Assembly: GCA_041577335.1 (NCBI GenBank)
Contig: JBFGJH010000005.1
Span: 1-64,000 of the forward strand
DNA: 64,000 nucleotides
Reading direction: 5' to 3'
Source: Acidimicrobiia bacterium
GTDB lineage: Bacteria > Actinomycetota > Acidimicrobiia > Spongiisociales > JAENVV01
Shown here: in pieces, positions 48,779-57,113 of the stretch
How the letters are laid out: every line of letters begins with the position of its first letter
How positions within the stretch are numbered: the first letter of the stretch is position 1
Notes under the pieces: model-generated
The model's input: the letters and a program-made list of their open reading frames with translations, nothing else
The model's database searches: none
What the model was told of the DNA's origin: nothing
Made by a program: the position numbers and the translations under genes

Positions 48779-49702
48779 ATGGAGCAAGCAGCCCTTTTTC
48801 AGCAGGTCATCGACGATGAGCAAAAGATCGAGCCGCGAGACTGGATGCCAGACGGCTACCGGCAAACGCTCATTCGGCAGATCGCCCAACACGCCCACTC
48901 CGAGGTGATCGGCATGCAGCCCGAGGGCAACTGGATCACCCGAGCGCCGAGCCTGAAACGAAAAGCGATCCTGATGGCCAAGGTCCAGGACGAAGCCGGG
49001 CACGGGCTGTATCTCTACAGCGCAGCAGAGACGCTCGGAGTCACCAGGGACGAGGTCGTCGACAAGCTCCACACCGGCCGGCACAAATACTCCTCGATAT
49101 TCAACTACCCCACCGTGACGTGGGCCGACATCGGCGCCATCGGTTGGCTTGTAGACGGCGCCGCGATCACCAACCAAGTGATGCTCACTCGTTGCTCATA
49201 CGGTCCCTACGCCCGCGCCATGGTCCGGATATGCAAGGAGGAGAGTTTCCACCAGCGGCAGGGATACGAGATCATGCTGACGCTTTCAAAGGGCACTCCG
49301 GCGCAAAAAGACATGGCGCAAGATGCCCTCGACAGGTGGTGGTGGCCCTCCCTCATGATGTTCGGGCCTCCCGACGCTGACTCCACCCATTCGGAACAGT
49401 CCATGGAATGGAAGATCAAACGGGTGTCGAATGACGACCTGCGCCAGCAGTTCATCGACATGACGGTCCCCCAGGCCGAGTACCTCGGCCTGGCCATCCC
49501 AGACCCCGATCTCGCCTGGAACGAATCGCGCGGTCATTACGACATCGGGCCTATCGACTGGGACGAGTTCTGGGAGGTTGTCGCTGGACGAGGTCCCATG
49601 AATCAAGAACGCATCGATCACAAGAACCAGGTGTGGGACGACAACGCATGGGTGCGAGAGGCGGCATCGGCGCACGCCCGCAAACAAAGGAAGACTGCCT
49701 GA
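48779..49702 (+). CDS. paaA: Phenylacetyl-CoA epoxidase subunit A
   Basis: [46 protein letters not shown]. Confidence 0.97.
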
Positions 49703-50034
49703 TGGTGTACGAAGGTCATGGCGCCCCAGACGACGCCCCAACGGACGGGAGCGGCACCAGCGAGTGGCCACTCTGGGAAGTGTTCATCCGTGCCCGGCGC
49801 GGCATGTCCCACATCCATGCCGGAAGCCTCCACGCACCCGACAGCGAAACTGCTCTGCAAAACGCCCGGGACGTGTACACCCGCAGACGGGAAGGAACGT
49901 CGGTCTGGGTGGTCCCATCAACTGCGATCGCAGCCTCCGACCCCCATGACGAGGGCCTGCTGGCGTCCTCGGATGACAAGCCGTATCGGCACCCGACCTT
50001 CTATGAGATCCCTGAAGAAGTGGGGCACATGTGA
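49702..50034 (+). CDS. paaB: Phenylacetyl-CoA epoxidase subunit B
   Basis: WPLWEVF.R, GSLHAPD...AL.NARDVYTRR.EG.S.WVV, DK.YRHP.FY. Confidence 0.96.
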   Translation: MVYEGHGAPDDAPTDGSGTSEWPLWEVFIRARRGMSHIHAGSLHAPDSETALQNARDVYTRRREGTSVWVVPSTAIAASDPHDEGLLASSDDKPYRHPTFYEIPEEVGHM

Positions 50035-50774
50035 GCGCCCTCTTCACCTACCTGCTGCGCCTTGCCGACGATCGACTGATCCTGTCCCATCGCCTTGGCG
50101 AATGGTCGTCGCGGGCGCCCGACCTCGAGGAGGATATTGCCCTCACCAATATCGGCCTCGACCTATTGGGTCATGCCCGCTCGCTCTATCAATACGCAGC
50201 CGAGGTAGAGGGGGCAGGACGAGACGAAGACGCTCTGGCGTTCCATCGAGACGAGAGGGAATTCTTCAACCTGGTGCTGGTAGAGCAGCCCAACGGATCT
50301 TTCGCCGACACGATCGCCCGTCAGTTCCTTTTCGACGCGTTCCAACTCCCCCAGTGGAAGGCGCTGATGGGCAGCTCGGACGAACGCCTCGCGGCCATCG
50401 CTGCCAAGGCCCACAAGGAAGCCCAATATCATCTCCGCCACTCCCGCAGCTGGGTCGTCAGGCTGGGAGACGGAACCGACCTTTCTCACGACCGCATGCA
50501 GAAGGCACTGGTCAAGGTCTGGCGCTATTCAGCCGAGCTGTTCTGGAGCGATGAGATCGAGGACTCGCTGCCGGGAGTTGCCGTGCTACCCGAGACGCTT
50601 CGTTCGGAGTGGCAGGCGACGGTCACCGCTGCCATCGCCGACGCGACGCTGACTGTCCCTGACACGCCATCCACGCTTCTCTCGGGCCGAACCGGCATCC
50701 ACAGCGAGCCGCTCGGGCGGATCTTGGCAGAAATGCAATACCTGCCTCGGATGCATCCGGAGGCGGTGTGGTAA
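50031..50774 (+). CDS. paaC: Phenylacetyl-CoA epoxidase subunit C
   Basis: LRLADD.LIL..RL.EW...AP.LEEDIAL.NI.LD..G.AR, AIA.K..KE..YH, EMQYL.R.HP...W. Confidence 0.96.
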   Translation: MSALFTYLLRLADDRLILSHRLGEWSSRAPDLEEDIALTNIGLDLLGHARSLYQYAAEVEGAGRDEDALAFHRDEREFFNLVLVEQPNGSFADTIARQFLFDAFQLPQWKALMGSSDERLAAIAAKAHKEAQYHLRHSRSWVVRLGDGTDLSHDRMQKALVKVWRYSAELFWSDEIEDSLPGVAVLPETLRSEWQATVTAAIADATLTVPDTPSTLLSGRTGIHSEPLGRILAEMQYLPRMHPEAVW

Positions 50775-51229
50775 CCGAGGCGCAGGCATGGGAGGTTGCC
50801 GCCACCGTGGTGGACCCCGAGATCCCCGTCCTCACGATCGCCGACCTGGGCATCCTTCGTGAGGTTCACGTCGAAGGCGACAGTGTCGATATCGTCATCA
50901 CGCCGACGTATTCGGGATGCCCGGCCATGGACCAGATCCGCCAGGACATCGAAGCGGCTTTCCGGGCTATCGGCCTGGGCCCCGTCACGATATCCACCAA
51001 ACTTTCGCCTGCGTGGACAACCGACTGGATGTCGCCGGAGGGCAAGGCGAAGCTCAACGATTTCGGGATCGCCCCACCTCGAACAGGATCTGACGAGCCG
51101 ATCCTGTGCCCGCAATGCTCGGCAGGTGGCAGCCGGCTGGTGTCGGAGTTTGCATCGACTGCGTGCAAGGCCCTGCGGGTTTGTCAAAGCTGCGGCGAGC
51201 CTTTCGACCATTTCAAAGAGCTCCGATGA
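50768..51229 (+). CDS. paaD: Phenylacetyl-CoA epoxidase subunit D
   Basis: DPEIPVLTI.DLG, TPTYSGCPA, PAWTTDW, CP.C...ST.CKA...C..C.EPF..FK. Confidence 0.96.
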   Translation: MVTEAQAWEVAATVVDPEIPVLTIADLGILREVHVEGDSVDIVITPTYSGCPAMDQIRQDIEAAFRAIGLGPVTISTKLSPAWTTDWMSPEGKAKLNDFGIAPPRTGSDEPILCPQCSAGGSRLVSEFASTACKALRVCQSCGEPFDHFKELR

Positions 51230-52287
51230 CCGACATCACCTTCCACGAACTCAAAGTGAATGCAGTGACCCCGCTCACCGCCGATGCGGTTGCGATCGCC
51301 CTGGAAGTGCCACCCCATCTCGAAGACCTCTTCGAGGCCCGCGCCGGACAGCACGTGACCGTGCGCGCCGCCATCGATGGTGAGGACGTGCGGCGCAGTT
51401 ATAGCTATTGCCGCAAGCCCCGCCGCGGCTTCATCGACATCGGCGTCAAACGGCTTCCAGATGGGAAATTCTCGACCTTTGCCACCTCTCAGCTGAAGGC
51501 GGGCCACACTTTGGAGGTTGCCCCTCCAGCCGGAGAGTTCACGCTGCCGCCTGCCGATGGCCCTCGCCATATCGCCGCGATCGCGGCCGGAAGCGGAATC
51601 ACGCCGGTGAAGTCACTCATCGAGACGGTGCTCTCCGACGAGCCAGGAGCCACAGCTACTCTCGTGTACGGCAACAGAACGCCCGCGACGGTCATGTTCC
51701 TCGACGACCTCGCCGACATCAAAGACCTCCATCCCGACCGGTTCCAGCTGATCCATGTGCTGTCTCGCGATCCGGGGGCGTTGCCGCTGTTCGCGGGTCG
51801 GATCGATCGGGAGCGGATCGCGGAACTGCTCGACGTGCTGATCGATCCGGGGCAGGTGGACGAATGGTATCTCTGTGGCCCCTACGACATGGTCACCGGA
51901 GCACGTGCCACTCTCATCGAACGAGGCGTTGCCGCCGATCGGATCCATGACGAGTTGTTCTTCTCGGGCCCGATCGACATCCCCGAGCCACCACCGGAGG
52001 ACGAAGAAGGGACCGTTCTGCTTCGCTTTCTCGCCGACGGGATCACCTCCGAGGTGAGGATGCGACCCGAGACCGCCATCTTGGACGCTGCCCTGTCGGT
52101 GCGACCCGAAATGGCTTACTCGTGCCGAGGCGGAATGTGCGCCACCTGCAAAGGCAAGGTGCTCGAAGGTTCTGCCGCCATGGACAAAAACTACGCCCTC
52201 ATCCAGGCAGAGACCGATGCCGGGTTCGTGCTCACCTGCCAGGCCCACCCCACAGCAGACGCCGTGTTCGTGGATTACGACGCGTGA
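51226..52287 (+). CDS. paaE: Phenylacetyl-CoA epoxidase reductase (FAD, [2Fe-2S])
   Basis: RRSYS, AAGSGITP, LCGP..M, YSCRGGMCATC...LTCQ. Confidence 0.95.
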   Translation: MTDITFHELKVNAVTPLTADAVAIALEVPPHLEDLFEARAGQHVTVRAAIDGEDVRRSYSYCRKPRRGFIDIGVKRLPDGKFSTFATSQLKAGHTLEVAPPAGEFTLPPADGPRHIAAIAAGSGITPVKSLIETVLSDEPGATATLVYGNRTPATVMFLDDLADIKDLHPDRFQLIHVLSRDPGALPLFAGRIDRERIAELLDVLIDPGQVDEWYLCGPYDMVTGARATLIERGVAADRIHDELFFSGPIDIPEPPPEDEEGTVLLRFLADGITSEVRMRPETAILDAALSVRPEMAYSCRGGMCATCKGKVLEGSAAMDKNYALIQAETDAGFVLTCQAHPTADAVFVDYDA

Positions 52288-52844
52288 CCCAGACCAGTCG
52301 CCAAGATGTGATCGACGCGGCGGGGCGTCTTTTCGCCAAGCGTGGCTACCACGGCACGTCGATGAGGACGCTCGGCAAAGAGCTTGGCCTGGTTGGATCA
52401 TCGCTGTACTCACACGTCGGCAGCAAGGAGGAGCTGCTGGTCGAGGTAGTGCGACACGGCGCGGCGCTGTTCGAGGCCTCCGTCGACAGAGCCCGGGCTG
52501 GCGGAGGCGACGGAGCCACCCAACTACGCAACCTCATCACCGGCCACCTCGACGTGGTGCTCGACAACCGCGACGCGGCGTCGACGTATCTCAACGAGGC
52601 CTCGGTGCTGGACGCTGATCATCGCAATCAGGTACGCGCCGAACGCAACCGATACGAACAGGCGTTCCGGGAGGTCTTCGACCTCGGCACCAAGGACGGT
52701 TCGCTTCCGAAGGCCGCAGACCCCAAACTCGCTGCCATTTTCACGCTATCGGTGCTGAACGCGGTCCCGCGGTGGTACCGGCCGCTTGGGCCCCTCGACC
52801 GGACAGACCTGGCAGACGAGATCTTCAGCTTCGTGACCCGCTAG
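52284..52844 (+). CDS. TetR-family regulator (likely PaaR-type repressor)
   Basis: A..LF...GY.GTS...L...LG....SLY.H..SKE.LL; GTG overlaps the paaE stop. Confidence 0.88.
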   Translation: MTQTSRQDVIDAAGRLFAKRGYHGTSMRTLGKELGLVGSSLYSHVGSKEELLVEVVRHGAALFEASVDRARAGGGDGATQLRNLITGHLDVVLDNRDAASTYLNEASVLDADHRNQVRAERNRYEQAFREVFDLGTKDGSLPKAADPKLAAIFTLSVLNAVPRWYRPLGPLDRTDLADEIFSFVTR

Positions 52845-52914
52845 CCCAGTCGTTCGACCACAGAATGGAGCGCCCGGGTACGGAGAGGTGGCAGGGGCCG
52901 CTAGGTTGCGGTGA

Positions 52915-53592
52915 ATGGATTTCACGCTCACAGCTCCCGACGGATCCGACTGGACCTTGTCGGATCATCTTGACGCCCCGGCGGTTCTGTTCTTCCTGAG
53001 GGGAGACTGGTGAGCGTATTGCAACGGCCAGCTGGTCAGCTTGGCCTCCCGACACGAAGACTTCCTCGCCGCCGGGGGCCGGATCTTTGGCATCGTTGTT
53101 GACAGCCCAGCGCAGAATTCGGCGCTGATCCAGAAGCTCAGCCTGCCGTTCCCGATCTTGTCCGATCCCGACCGAGGTGAGGCAATCAGCCCGATGGGAT
53201 ACAGCAACGCCACCGACCCTCGCAACATAGCCCTGCCGGGCACGGTGATCATCGGCACCGACGGGGCCGACGCCTTTCGCTGGGAGTCACGGGACTTCGC
53301 AGACCGCATCCCGGAGGACGACGTGATCGCAGCGCTCGAACGTATCGGGGGTCCGGCAACCTCTCAAGAGCCACCCACGCTGGGCCCGGCAGAGCCCGGC
53401 CCCAAGGCACTGCCGTTCGAGCAGATGGGCCCCTACTTCCGAGGTGCCCGCTTCGCTGCGCAAGCCCTGGGGCTACGGCACAAGGACGCCTACCCCGATA
53501 TCAAAGACGACAGTAAGGCCTACATCGCCGAGATGGATCGCTACCTCGCTGCGTACAACGCCCTCAAGGAGTCACGGGCCAACAAGACCTAA
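52915..53592 (+). CDS. AhpC/TSA (peroxiredoxin-like, thioredoxin-fold) selenoprotein with a UxxC motif
   Basis: ATG 52915 reads MDFTLTAPDGSDWTLSDHLDAPAVLFFLRGDW-TGA(53011-53013)-AYCNGQL in frame with track ORF 53041..53592 (L.FP.LSDP...PGT.II..DG). Confidence 0.88.
53026..53046 (+). promoter_or_regulatory. Putative bacterial SECIS hairpin
   Basis: GGCCAGCT-GGTC-AGC(T)TGGCC; 8-bp stem with one bulged U, starting 12 nt after the UGA; loop begins with GG. Confidence 0.75.
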
Positions 53593-56500
53593 ACCTCGAT
53601 GGGTACGTGCGGCGTATCGCCCCGCCGCTTGTGCCACTGGTCCCACAAGACGAGCATCGACGGCAGCAAGAGCAGCGACGTCAGGAGCGCAAAGGCGATG
53701 GCGTAGAACGTCACAGCTCCGAACTGGCGGAACGGCGTGAGGTTCGACGTCACCAAAGAGCCGAAGCCCGCCATGGTCGTCATCGCCGAGCCTGCCAGTG
53801 CTCCTCCCGTGTGGAGGGTTGTCGACCGGATGGCGCTCTCCGTGGTTTCATACCGCACGCGGTCCTCTTGGAATCGGTGCGTGATGTGGATGGTGTAGGG
53901 AACACCAATTCCAATGGCCAATGCCGAGATCGTCGCCGTCACCGGGCCAAACGGGATACCGGTGAGGGCCATCATGCCAAAGGTCAACAGGACCACCAGG
54001 CCAACGGGCAGCATGGTAATGACACCCAGCAAAGGCTGACGCGACTCGATCCAGAAGTTCACTACCAGGAGCAGCGTCGCCGCTGCCAGGGTGATGAGCA
54101 GCGACTGCAACTGCGACTCCTGGAGTGACTTCACGACGACATCTCCGATGATGTCGTTGGAGGTCGGTACGGCCGACCCGTCCTGGGCGGTGACCGGCGC
54201 GAACGCCTCGCGCAGATTGGTGTTGAGTTCCCCGGCACGCGCATCGCCGGCTTGGGTGCTGATGCTCCACAGCGAGGCATCCCCATTGACAACGGCGGCA
54301 AATCCCTCGGGGTTCGCCTCTTCGACGAGGCCGTAGATGGCTCCAACGTCGGCGTCTGCGGAGACGCGGAGATCCGCTCCCAGCCCGGCGTCAGCCGCGG
54401 CGATCGCGACTGACTCGTTGTAGCCCGGAGACTGCGGGTTCACCATGTTGCCGATCACGGACAGAACCGAGTCCGCCGATGCCGACCCGCCAAACAGCAC
54501 GACGTCCTCGGTGTCGGCCAGATTCTCGAGAGCATCGACCTGAGCATTGTGGAATGCAGCCGTCTCCACATCGCCCTTCACGAGCACGCTGGTCGACTCG
54601 CCGAACCCCCCACCAAACTCTTCGGTGAGGAGATCGAGCGACTCGAGCAACGGATTGTCACTCGGCACGAAGTCGGTGAACGAAAACTCGGTGGACAGCT
54701 GTTGCCGCCCGTACTCGCCGACGCCCGCAAGGACGAGCCCGACGATGACCACCGGAATGGCGGCGTGAGTTGCCAGCTTGGCTGTCGGTCCAACAATCTT
54801 CGGCAGGTAGACGAGGATGCCGCCGACAGCTGCGCCGATGAACATGAAGATGATGAGGCCCACCGGCTGGAAGCTGTCGCCAAAAGGTGTCTCGTTCAAC
54901 GAGGAGTCGAGGAACGCCGACACTGCGTAGACGAAGACACCGCCGATGATTCCTGCCAAAACTGCACCGACGAGGGAGCCGCTGGCTTCGGAAGCAGCAC
55001 CCAGTGCCGCCTTCGGCAACCGACCTGCTCTTTCAGCCCGGCGATCGAGGAGCTCTCGGACCGCAGGCACGAAGGTCAACATCAGAACGAACGATGCAAC
55101 AATGCCGACGGCCGCCAGGATTCCAAAATCCTTCAATGCCGGCACCGGGCTGACCAAGTTGGTCAGGAACCCGACGGCGGTCGTCACTGTGGCGAGCACG
55201 AGCGCAACACCGACCGTCTTGATCGCCGCCTGGATGGCGTTGTCAACCGACTCGTGCCCTACCTCTTCTCGGTATCGGAACGTCATGTGGATCCCGTAGT
55301 CGACACCGAGGCCGATGAGGAGGATCGGCAGGATCTGGACGATTTGGTTGAAGTCGCCGATCACGCCGAGGTATTTCGGGCCGAGCAGCACCCCCGCACC
55401 CTGCATGAACCCGATCGCCAAGAAAATCGTCACGAGCGTGAGCGCCGTTTCAGCACCGGTACGCCGCGCCGCCAGACCGATGCGATTGCGGTACCAGAAG
55501 TTGAAGAGAAGGATCACGAGGATGATGGCGCCGGCGAGGCCGAACATACGCCCGATCTCAGCTGTGGCATCGCCGCCGGAGGCGAAGATCAGGCCGAACG
55601 AGAATGCCTTGGCCTCGAAGCCTTCGGGCAGGTCGAGCCCGGCGAGCTGATCGGCCAACGCCTGCTGGCGCAAACCGAAGGCTTCCTGCTCGTCCGCGGG
55701 TGCGTCGGTGAGGAACACGAGCATCAGGCCATGGCTCGCCGTGAGAGCGTCCATATCGCGATCCGCACCGAGAAGATTCGATACGACACCCGCCTGCTCC
55801 GCCGGGATGAATGCGAGCCCGTCGCGATAACCGGCTTTCAGCTCTTCGGTCGTTGGAGCCACGGCCGGAGTGAAACCGACGGTGATGCCATCGACGTCGA
55901 CCCCGGTCAGCATGTCGGCCAGGGCCGCTTCCTCGTCTGCGGTCAACGGTTCGGTGAGATTGGCAACCACCAAGCCCTTCGAGGCAACGTTGGCAACCCG
56001 GTCTCGGTCACTTGCCATGAGAAAGTCGAGGAATGGCGCCACATCCGCAGGCAAGAATGCCAGCCGGTCGGCGTACAGGGTCTTGAAGTCCTCCCCGGTC
56101 GCGCCCGGATCGAGAACTCGGGCCGAGAAGGGAGTGGACAGGCCGGCGACCGCAGATGCGAGCTCGGCGACTTCGTCGGGCGTGGCAGGCTCGGAGAGGT
56201 TGACGGTGATCAGGCCTTTGGCGGCCGTGGCAGCCTCGAGATCGGCGTCGTTGGAAACCAGGAACGGGAGGAAGCCAGCCACCTCTGGCGGGAGATCGGC
56301 CTGGCCTCCGAGATATGCCTGCTTGATCGCCTCCGTGTCAGCATCGGCCGGTAATGCCCCTTGGGCGATCGCGACGTCGACCGGGAGAAGGAACGTGGTG
56401 ATCGGCGACTGATCCGGAACGTCCAGGAGCTTCTCGCCGATCGACGAAAATACAGCTTGCTGCACCGCGTTGCTCGTTTGCAGGCCTTCGGCCGTGAAGA

Positions 56501-57113
56501 CGTCGCCATCTCCAGCATCGACGACGATCTGGATCGTTGGCCCCTGTCCGGGTGCTGACGCCAGCGGAGCCATGAACGAGACAAAGGGGCCCTGCGGCGA
56601 CTCGGTGTCGAGCTTCGCCGCAGCTGGTGACTCGAAGACAGCCTGCTGGATGGCATTCACGGCCTCCAGGCCCTCGGGTGAGACCACATCGTCACCAGAA
56701 ACGACGACTCGCACCGTCGGGTTTCCCCCCGCTTGGCCTTCGAGGGGCGCCAAGAACGATACGACCGCCCCAGTGCCTTCCTGCTGTTGGAGGTCGGCAG
56801 CCACCTCGCTCGATTCGATGGTCGACGAGATCTGCTGGACCGTCTCGAGGCCCTCCGCGCTCAAGACATCTCCGTCGTCGGTGGCGACAATCACCTGAAG
56901 CACCACGCTTGACGATTCGTCACCGAAGACCTCGCCGATTTCCTCCGCCGCCGTCAGCTCTTCTGCATCAGGCGCAAACCCCTCGTTGGCATCGGCCATG
57001 ACAATCTGGCTCGAGAACGACGCCACGATGAAGGTTGCCGCGATCACCGCCACGATCGTGATGATTGGATGACGACGGACCGAGATGGCGAGCAGATTGA
57101 TGACGGACTTCAC
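53589..57113 (-). CDS. MMPL/RND-family transporter with a greatly expanded first extracytoplasmic loop
   Basis: TM1, large loop, ILLIGLGVDYGIH, ATVTTAVGF, second half GIGVPYTIH, SAMTTMAGFG; 1174 aa. Confidence 0.93.
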   Translation of the reverse strand: MKSVINLLAISVRRHPIITIVAVIAATFIVASFSSQIVMADANEGFAPDAEELTAAEEIGEVFGDESSSVVLQVIVATDDGDVLSAEGLETVQQISSTIESSEVAADLQQQEGTGAVVSFLAPLEGQAGGNPTVRVVVSGDDVVSPEGLEAVNAIQQAVFESPAAAKLDTESPQGPFVSFMAPLASAPGQGPTIQIVVDAGDGDVFTAEGLQTSNAVQQAVFSSIGEKLLDVPDQSPITTFLLPVDVAIAQGALPADADTEAIKQAYLGGQADLPPEVAGFLPFLVSNDADLEAATAAKGLITVNLSEPATPDEVAELASAVAGLSTPFSARVLDPGATGEDFKTLYADRLAFLPADVAPFLDFLMASDRDRVANVASKGLVVANLTEPLTADEEAALADMLTGVDVDGITVGFTPAVAPTTEELKAGYRDGLAFIPAEQAGVVSNLLGADRDMDALTASHGLMLVFLTDAPADEQEAFGLRQQALADQLAGLDLPEGFEAKAFSFGLIFASGGDATAEIGRMFGLAGAIILVILLFNFWYRNRIGLAARRTGAETALTLVTIFLAIGFMQGAGVLLGPKYLGVIGDFNQIVQILPILLIGLGVDYGIHMTFRYREEVGHESVDNAIQAAIKTVGVALVLATVTTAVGFLTNLVSPVPALKDFGILAAVGIVASFVLMLTFVPAVRELLDRRAERAGRLPKAALGAASEASGSLVGAVLAGIIGGVFVYAVSAFLDSSLNETPFGDSFQPVGLIIFMFIGAAVGGILVYLPKIVGPTAKLATHAAIPVVIVGLVLAGVGEYGRQQLSTEFSFTDFVPSDNPLLESLDLLTEEFGGGFGESTSVLVKGDVETAAFHNAQVDALENLADTEDVVLFGGSASADSVLSVIGNMVNPQSPGYNESVAIAAADAGLGADLRVSADADVGAIYGLVEEANPEGFAAVVNGDASLWSISTQAGDARAGELNTNLREAFAPVTAQDGSAVPTSNDIIGDVVVKSLQESQLQSLLITLAAATLLLVVNFWIESRQPLLGVITMLPVGLVVLLTFGMMALTGIPFGPVTATISALAIGIGVPYTIHITHRFQEDRVRYETTESAIRSTTLHTGGALAGSAMTTMAGFGSLVTSNLTPFRQFGAVTFYAIAFALLTSLLLLPSMLVLWDQWHKRRGDTPHVPIEV

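Follow-up and report, generated by a model that had tools for sequence, protein, structure and literature searches.

A very probable UGA-encoded, peroxiredoxin-like UxxC selenoprotein with a conserved helical tail in an Acidimicrobiia lineage

In the stretch of DNA analyzed here (64,000 nucleotides of an Acidimicrobiia bacterium, referred to as the window), a plain list of open reading frames places the start of one gene at TTG 53041 and assigns it a product of 183 amino acids. The same frame extends upstream through a single TGA to an ATG at 52915, and this raises the question of whether the TGA is decoded as selenocysteine (Sec) and which kind of protein would then be made. An earlier note on this DNA had proposed a hidden selenoprotein, and its basic readings (ATG 52915, TGA 53011, the motif W-U-A-Y-C and a TAGGTT hexamer 7 nt upstream of the start) were all recovered in the sequence. 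The features of the locus are as follows:

52915..53592, + strand: full gene of the predicted peroxiredoxin-like UxxC selenoprotein, 225 amino acids (translation with TGA as U, Pfam, alignment, model)
52902..52907, + strand: TANNNT -10-like hexamer TAGGTT with a 7-nt gap to ATG 52915, consistent with a probably leaderless mRNA
53011..53013, + strand: in-frame TGA, very probably read as Sec33 (TGA/TGC pattern among homologous loci)
53020..53022, + strand: Cys36, second residue of UxxC, invariant in 33/33 alignment rows and aligned to the peroxidatic Cys of peroxiredoxins
53026..53046, + strand: putative bacterial SECIS hairpin with the loop GGUC 20 nt after the UGA (bSECIS constraints, pairing, synonymous freeze)
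52915..53355, + strand: thioredoxin/peroxiredoxin-fold domain (residues 1-147), in which Pro108 takes the place of the peroxiredoxin Arg and the motif D127-x-A-D-R131 is conserved
53416..53586, + strand: hairpin of two C-terminal helices (168-188, 194-224), the predicted interface of a dimer (model; no Pfam match)

With TGA translated as U, the frame runs from ATG 52915 to the stop codon TAA 53590-53592 and yields a 225-residue product with U33 and C36. It cannot begin further upstream, because an in-frame TGA (52912-52914) immediately precedes the ATG. The Pfam profile AhpC-TSA (PF00578) spans residues 2-117 across the internal TGA (E 4.6e-22, 78.7 bits vs. a cut-off of 26), which bears out the AhpC/TSA N-terminus suggested earlier, and the closest named locus belongs to an Acidimicrobiia MAG (59% identity). 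A promoter scan found no sigma-70 -35/-10 pair upstream of the gene. Among the 47 homologous loci examined, 45 had an assignable start. A TANNNT hexamer was located 4-9 nt before this start in 26/45 loci (0.7% background), an SD-like word was detected in 14/45, and one locus had both. These signals support the upstream ATG as start, and the mRNA is probably leaderless.

If the TGA were a true stop or a pseudogene lesion, only the 183-residue product from TTG 53041 would be made. It is in line with this reading that the N-terminus is absent from 119 of the 120 best protein-database homologues (among 150 profile hits, 14 extend over the motif region as well as the tail) and that the hairpin downstream of the TGA is not significant when taken alone. 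However, truncation is the usual output of gene callers at a UGA, the 32 codons upstream of the TGA are conserved and in frame among the homologues, the start signals are found at the upstream ATG, and a product starting at TTG 53041 would be devoid of the active site. Moreover, it is implausible that one lesion should recur in 47/47 loci across several families, and we consider a true stop highly improbable. With Sec at this codon, a systematic annotation error is corrected, the 119 database homologues being stored without their active site.

Comparison of codon 33 among the homologues bears directly on its decoding. This codon was TGA in 30/30 loci returned from 61 genomes of the order (a 31st match, in genome G006, had no locus). 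When L048 and 16 class-wide loci were added and 14 loci repeating counted genomes were omitted, TGA was present in 47/47 loci on the Acidimicrobiia side. In five more distant genomes outside these 47 loci (G149, G203, G527, G634, G668), a TGA was listed within the match. The Rubrobacteraceae side comprised family f32 and four loci titled Rubrobacteraceae, the tree positions of which are interspersed with those of f32. Here, 14 of the 28 loci carried TGA, nine TGC (Cys), three a Ser codon and two an Asp codon. Thus, the alignment of homologues that had been recommended as a check returned TGA or Cys, with a few Ser or Asp. The tree comprised 36 rows; 13 of those without TGA formed one clade (95/95), with one apart, and all were placed within TGA-bearing branches. 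This topology suggests that the non-TGA forms are losses from a Sec-containing ancestor, the tree being rooted at its midpoint only. Since five homologues carry Ser or Asp at position 33, this residue is not essential everywhere.

In several unusual homologues (L098, L099, L100, L104, L106, P0138, P0147, P0165), Sec33 is replaced by Ser or Asp, or Cys36 by Asp; where known, their genomes bear selA. Locus L084, in which TGC is combined with an unimpaired SECIS, resembles a recent change from Sec to Cys.

A sequencing error at position 53011 had been named as a possible refutation. In the assembled contigs of 4/4 public runs, one of which is a possible source of the window, no other letter was found at 53011-53013. 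Among 22 runs listed, none was an RNA data set with a match, which carries no information on expression. Many foreign contigs match only 52985-53065, which corresponds to the codon plus the hairpin.

Decoding of TGA as Trp (code 4) has been reported for some Eggerthellaceae (PMC13462651). For the present gene, such decoding would be compatible with the W found at this position in one full-length database homologue (P0003, a protein record) and with the fact that no tRNA-Trp(CCA) was found in the 91%-complete assembly. On the other hand, TGA terminates 1357 of 2094 long coding-like ORFs of this genome and is its main stop codon, the sequence past TGA is non-coding-like, as it is after TAA and TAG, and the sole tRNA with a TCA anticodon is tRNA-Sec. 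The sense-codon homologues, when read in the DNA, had Cys, Ser or Asp, never Trp. The Trp reading is largely refuted, and we assign it a negligible probability.

The hairpin that the earlier note had described 12 nt past the TGA is present: TGA 53011-53013 is followed by 12 nt and then by a 21-nt hairpin (53026-53046) with the loop GGTC at 53034-53037. The TTG codon at which the plain ORF list starts the gene sits in the stem of this hairpin. According to the available text of a 2026 review (PMC13188914), the bSECIS model involves a loop of 3-9 nt with G in the first two places, a stem of 4-16 bp, a distance of 16-37 nt from the UGA and an energy of at most -7.5. The present element, with a 4-nt GGUC loop, eight pairs, a distance of 20 nt and -12.0 kcal/mol, lies within these limits. 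In E. coli fdhF, the loop is also GGUC, as the earlier note had stated and as agrees with the fdhF sequence, and it is located 18 nt after the UGA.

When the 60 nt from the TGA were folded, stability was no better than that of shuffled sequences (z 0.41). A similar rule also assigns a SECIS-like hairpin to 3% of the ordinary TGA stops of this genome (41/1361; 7/1361 with a GGU loop). The hairpin alone is therefore weak evidence, and its stability was rejected as an argument and replaced by conservation. Judged from the aligned sequences, conservation lifts the hairpin above chance. Over 31 aligned copies, 89.9% of the cells were paired, a value that was reached by 0/500 shuffles, while slid structures gave 6-48%. 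The outer pair was broken in 19/31 rows and all five two-sided changes fell on one pair. The synonymous fixation index was 0.56 over the eight hairpin codons vs. 0.04 over 72 others (p 4e-4; 28 sequences, kin not independent), and codon use within the hairpin was almost frozen (CAG 28/28, CTG 26/28, GTC 26/26, AGC 24/26). On the Acidimicrobiia side, a strict apical stem was detected in 38 of the 47 TGA loci. The nine failures comprised two loci with a G-U pair, six members of a shifted-hairpin clade (five of which show an AGUU loop at +16) and one divergent locus. On the Rubrobacteraceae side, the strict stem was found in 12/12 TGA forms tested vs. 6/14 non-TGA forms (the pattern did not pick up L103 and L105). 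It can be seen that a natural series from Sec to Cys, Ser or Asp exists, in which the SECIS decays in parallel.

Sec decoding also involves a dedicated machinery. The genome that contains the window (G000, 90.75% complete) carries selA and an adjacent selB on contig C3, selD with its own in-frame TGA on C64, and tRNA-Sec with a TCA anticodon on C87, the only TCA-anticodon tRNA of this genome. Thus, the search for selA, selB, selC and selD that had been suggested as a check was positive throughout. Among 61 genomes of the order, selA exceeded the cut-off in 54/61 and selB in 55/61 (tallies that include the unpublished G036), and selA did so in 260/401 genomes of a phylum sample. This sample was evenly drawn, over-weights small classes and includes the unpublished G061, G106, G146, G177, G372 and G390. 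These frequencies contradict the statement of the earlier note that Sec recoding is uncommon in Actinobacteria; in this lineage, recoding is ordinary. The selenoprotein family itself is present in 35/401 phylum genomes, and selA was found in 34 of these 35. For distant genomes carrying the family the count was 32/32, and for gene-bearing relatives within the order selA was over the cut-off in only 26/30; G010 is 54% complete, G017 is 69% complete, and in G056 selA is in two pieces. In G001 (same genus, 98% complete), no match to selA or selB was found, and this genome carries tRNA-Sec, a TGA-containing selD and the TGA form of the selenoprotein gene. The selA/selB absence would fit one missing contig; it may reflect an assembly gap or a recent loss. 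Sec use in Acidimicrobiia has been reported for Actinomarina (available text of bioRxiv 10.64898/2026.04.03.716425), and in 2006 Actinobacteria were called rich in selenoprotein families, a count that included Symbiobacterium. Machinery, homologue codons and hairpin conservation all support Sec recoding, and on this sequence evidence we consider it almost certain that UGA33 is read through as Sec.

The same genome contains twelve further TGA Sec candidates, most of them with a GGU- or AGU-loop hairpin 16-22 nt after the UGA. A motif-only scan for Sec sites was too noisy and was replaced by coding-potential and hairpin scans, which can miss sites near gene ends.

Nine candidates with the TGA at redox-Cys positions: SelD (C64:8351, + strand), FdhA, two TlpA/ResA-like, SelL-like, Rv2466c-like, AhpD-like, OsmC-like and SelW-like proteins
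TGA sites of these nine: C46:14545 (+), C69:2959 (+), C57:10547 (-), C74:10990 (-), C9:37961 (-), C14:46951 (+), C32:5919 (+), C50:17225 (-), C64:8351 (+)
Three remaining candidates: one CC/Se-motif-like and one radical-SAM-like protein, and one with a Tat signal that falls into no family

Eleven other sites were inspected and rejected as ordinary stops (C63:15913, C63:9193, C32:14775, C8:57880, C74:15127, C55:18663, C66:10786, C33:34970, C21:28258, C98:543, C101:5523). The Rv2466c-like candidate is a UxxC form within the mycothiol-dependent nitroreductase family. At C17:11366 (+), a radical-SAM-like protein (L076) ends in C-U-A-E-P and has a strong hairpin; it may be a "CUAEP-tail radical SAM" protein. 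Locus L072 (C1:127626 and 127752, +) is a small gene with two in-frame TGAs 42 codons apart and a weak NF041239 match. The product of the Tat-signal candidate (L073/L131; C34:15931-16809, -) carries a signal of the twin-arginine-like type; the in-frame TGA of the gene falls in the motif F-x-F-U, and neither Pfam nor NCBIfam gave a match. Its sole homologue found in 60 relatives (L132; G052:C152) is 58% identical with TGA at the same codon, and in both genes a hairpin is located about 18-19 nt downstream of the TGA. Judged from these sequences, L073/L131 is possibly an uncatalogued exported selenoprotein; the available text of the 2026 review (PMC13188914) makes no mention of twin-arginine or Tat.

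To define the protein class, we modeled the 225-residue product with AlphaFold from a 33-row alignment (pLDDT 95, pTM 0.90). The model consists of a thioredoxin/peroxiredoxin domain (residues 1-147), a Pro-rich linker and the helices 168-188 and 194-224. The product lacks an N-terminal extension that could serve as signal peptide. When residues 1-147 were searched with Foldseek, the best structural matches were BCP and AhpE peroxiredoxins. Superposition with AhpE gave Z 18.2 and rmsd 1.6 over 142 aligned residues vs. Z 13.8 and rmsd 2.3 over 132 residues for ResA/TlpA. In alignments to 2cx3, 2ywn and AhpE, the peroxiredoxin Pro corresponds to Arg29, the Thr/Ser to Sec33, the peroxidatic Cys to Cys36 (invariant in all alignment rows) and the Arg, which has a catalytic role in peroxiredoxins, to Pro108. 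Thus, from the peroxiredoxin pattern (PxxxT/SxxC plus Arg) the fold and the peroxidatic Cys are retained, but Pro, Thr/Ser and the catalytic Arg are not. Pro108 is nearly invariant among the alignment rows and presumably represents the thioredoxin cis-proline. Because U stands in place of Thr/Ser and Pro108 in place of the catalytic Arg, the product, as judged by its residues, is peroxiredoxin-like in fold, yet no true peroxiredoxin. The term peroxiredoxin-like used in the earlier note therefore holds for the fold but fails for the catalytic triad (Arg29, Sec33, Pro108). In NCBIfam no model exceeded its cut-off: peroxiredoxin models scored 20.6 of 260 and 20.4 of 140, and the best match, the SelL-related NF040769, covered residues 2-87 (E 9.6e-11) with 41.6 bits at a cut-off of 120. 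PF00578, the UxxC motif and homology to a published member place the product among the peroxiredoxin-like thiol:disulfide oxidoreductases.

The same selenoprotein might mainly reduce peroxides, with Sec33 or Cys36 attacking the peroxide. This possibility gains from the higher rank of the BCP and AhpE structures over ResA/TlpA and from Cys36, which occupies the peroxidatic Cys column and is retained when position 33 is Ser or Asp. However, Arg29 and Pro108 at the peroxiredoxin Pro and Arg positions and NCBIfam peroxiredoxin scores far below the cut-offs argue against it, and we regard a peroxide reductase as rather unlikely. As main activity, thiol-disulfide exchange is somewhat favored over peroxidase activity by the sequence motifs.

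The C-terminal tail is conserved throughout the family (Y174 and R188 in 33/33 rows; G177, A178, F180, A181 and A184 in 30-32/33), and a Pfam search with residues 145-225 returned no match. In the database protein P0168, the helical hairpin precedes the thioredoxin domain. This rearrangement indicates that the tail behaves as a module. For modeling of a dimer, a Cys homologue with 43% identity over 201 amino acids (P0122) served as stand-in with our own alignment. Its two-copy model reached a score of 0.70 vs. 0.01 for the best control, and the dimer-score mark was attained by 20/30 solved pairs and 1/23 single chains. The runs shared at least 98% of the contacts with pLDDT values of at least 92. 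In this model, the C-terminal helices form the interface and touch the active-site loop; in query numbering, the interface corresponds to positions 167-207, 126-130 and 34-35, next to Sec33. The model supports hairpins forming a four-helix-bundle dimer against the active site, and dimerization through the C-terminal hairpin appears likely. This predicted dimer is a new addition and offers a testable role for the unexplained tail.

Upstream of the gene, the stretch 48,800-52,844 (+) comprises an ordinary phenylacetyl-CoA epoxidase cluster with paaC, paaD and paaE, followed by a TetR regulator; the two ORFs ahead of these paa genes resemble paaA and paaB by eye. Downstream, a convergent gene (53589-57113, -), the stop of which overlaps the selenoprotein stop codon, encodes a 1174-residue MMPL/RND transporter with a long insert between its two MMPL halves. 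A functional link to these neighbors was rejected: in the 1.5-kb flanks of the homologous loci, the TetR gene of the paa cluster was matched beside 0/46 other loci and the MMPL gene beside 2/46. No flanking protein cluster occurred in more than 9/47 loci, and the neighborhood is not conserved.

Taken together, we consider it highly probable that UGA33 is Sec-decoded; the peroxiredoxin-like product most likely acts as a thiol:disulfide oxidoreductase and likely forms a hairpin-paired dimer. According to this scenario, a stand-alone gene would be transcribed into a probably leaderless mRNA, and SelB with Sec-tRNA would bind the hairpin 20 nt past the UGA, an established mechanism that we infer for this gene. 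The product would be cytoplasmic. Judged from the UxxC motif and the retained Pro108, attack by Sec33, as selenolate, on a disulfide or a related oxidized substrate is most likely. Resolution by Cys36 would leave a selenenylsulfide, from which a cellular reductant would regenerate the enzyme. In the model, the C-terminal hairpins of two copies most likely form the four-helix bundle against the active-site loop, which may shape the substrate pocket.

A wider proposal is advanced tentatively. The protein might represent an unnamed peroxiredoxin-like selenoenzyme subfamily that carried Sec from its root and is confined to Sec-using Actinomycetota. Its two-copy four-helix bundle would cap the UxxC motif and create a pocket dedicated to a single substrate, an arrangement that differs from the open thioredoxin sites and from common peroxiredoxin dimers. 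Counting this protein, about 13 selenoproteins of a sediment Acidimicrobiia lineage would be truncated by standard gene calling, including a probably exported family without Pfam or NCBIfam match.

The gene is no new selenoprotein type and involves no new recoding mechanism. Peroxiredoxin-like thiol:disulfide oxidoreductases with PF00578 and UxxC or UxxU are a predicted selenoprotein family (available texts of PMC9312934 and PMC13188914), graded in the 2026 review as predicted with high confidence, without experimental verification (PMC13188914), and counted in 28 organisms (PMC5029168, available text). In the literature available to us, with subscription papers outside its scope, we found no paper on the tail or hairpin, the dimer, the activity or Acidimicrobiia members. 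The text of BSepDB makes no mention of Actinobacteria, Acidimicrobiia, Prx, AhpC or peroxiredoxin, and the database itself may hold members. Against this background, two points are added, both modest and testable: the dimer model and a selenoproteome hidden throughout the order.

Compared with known systems, the product shares with true peroxiredoxins (BCP/PrxQ, AhpE) the fold over residues 1-147 and Cys36 at the peroxidatic Cys. In contrast to these enzymes and to the Sec-peroxiredoxins with TxxU, its Sec occupies the Thr/Ser position, and other residues stand where the triad has Pro and Arg. The SelL-related NF040769, its best NCBIfam match, likewise has a CxxC-type motif without the peroxiredoxin triad, but the match stays below the cut-off and a closer SelL-like candidate exists elsewhere in the same genome (C57, 85.1 bits). 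PRX_like2 (cd02970) presumably also combines a CxxC-type motif with the lack of this triad, as in our protein. The Geobacter and Desulfotalea members printed in 2006 (PMC1794560, available part) end after the thioredoxin domain without a hairpin, unlike the query. The closest published relative is the Rubrobacter xylanophilus member, which appears under the family heading in Zhang et al. 2006 (PMC1794560, supplementary file 4), so that, according to this part of the source, the subfamily is predicted as an actinobacterial selenoprotein already in 2006. That prediction, made from one Rubrobacter, is here widened to a whole Acidimicrobiia order. The product of locus L095 reads by eye like the printed protein, and its identity to the query is 35% (residues 3-220). 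R. xylanophilus belongs to another class of Actinomycetota, but its protein shows by eye the same RGDW-U-xYCNGQLVS and D-F-A-D-R motifs and the same Y-x-R-G-x-x-F-A helical tail (PMC1794560).
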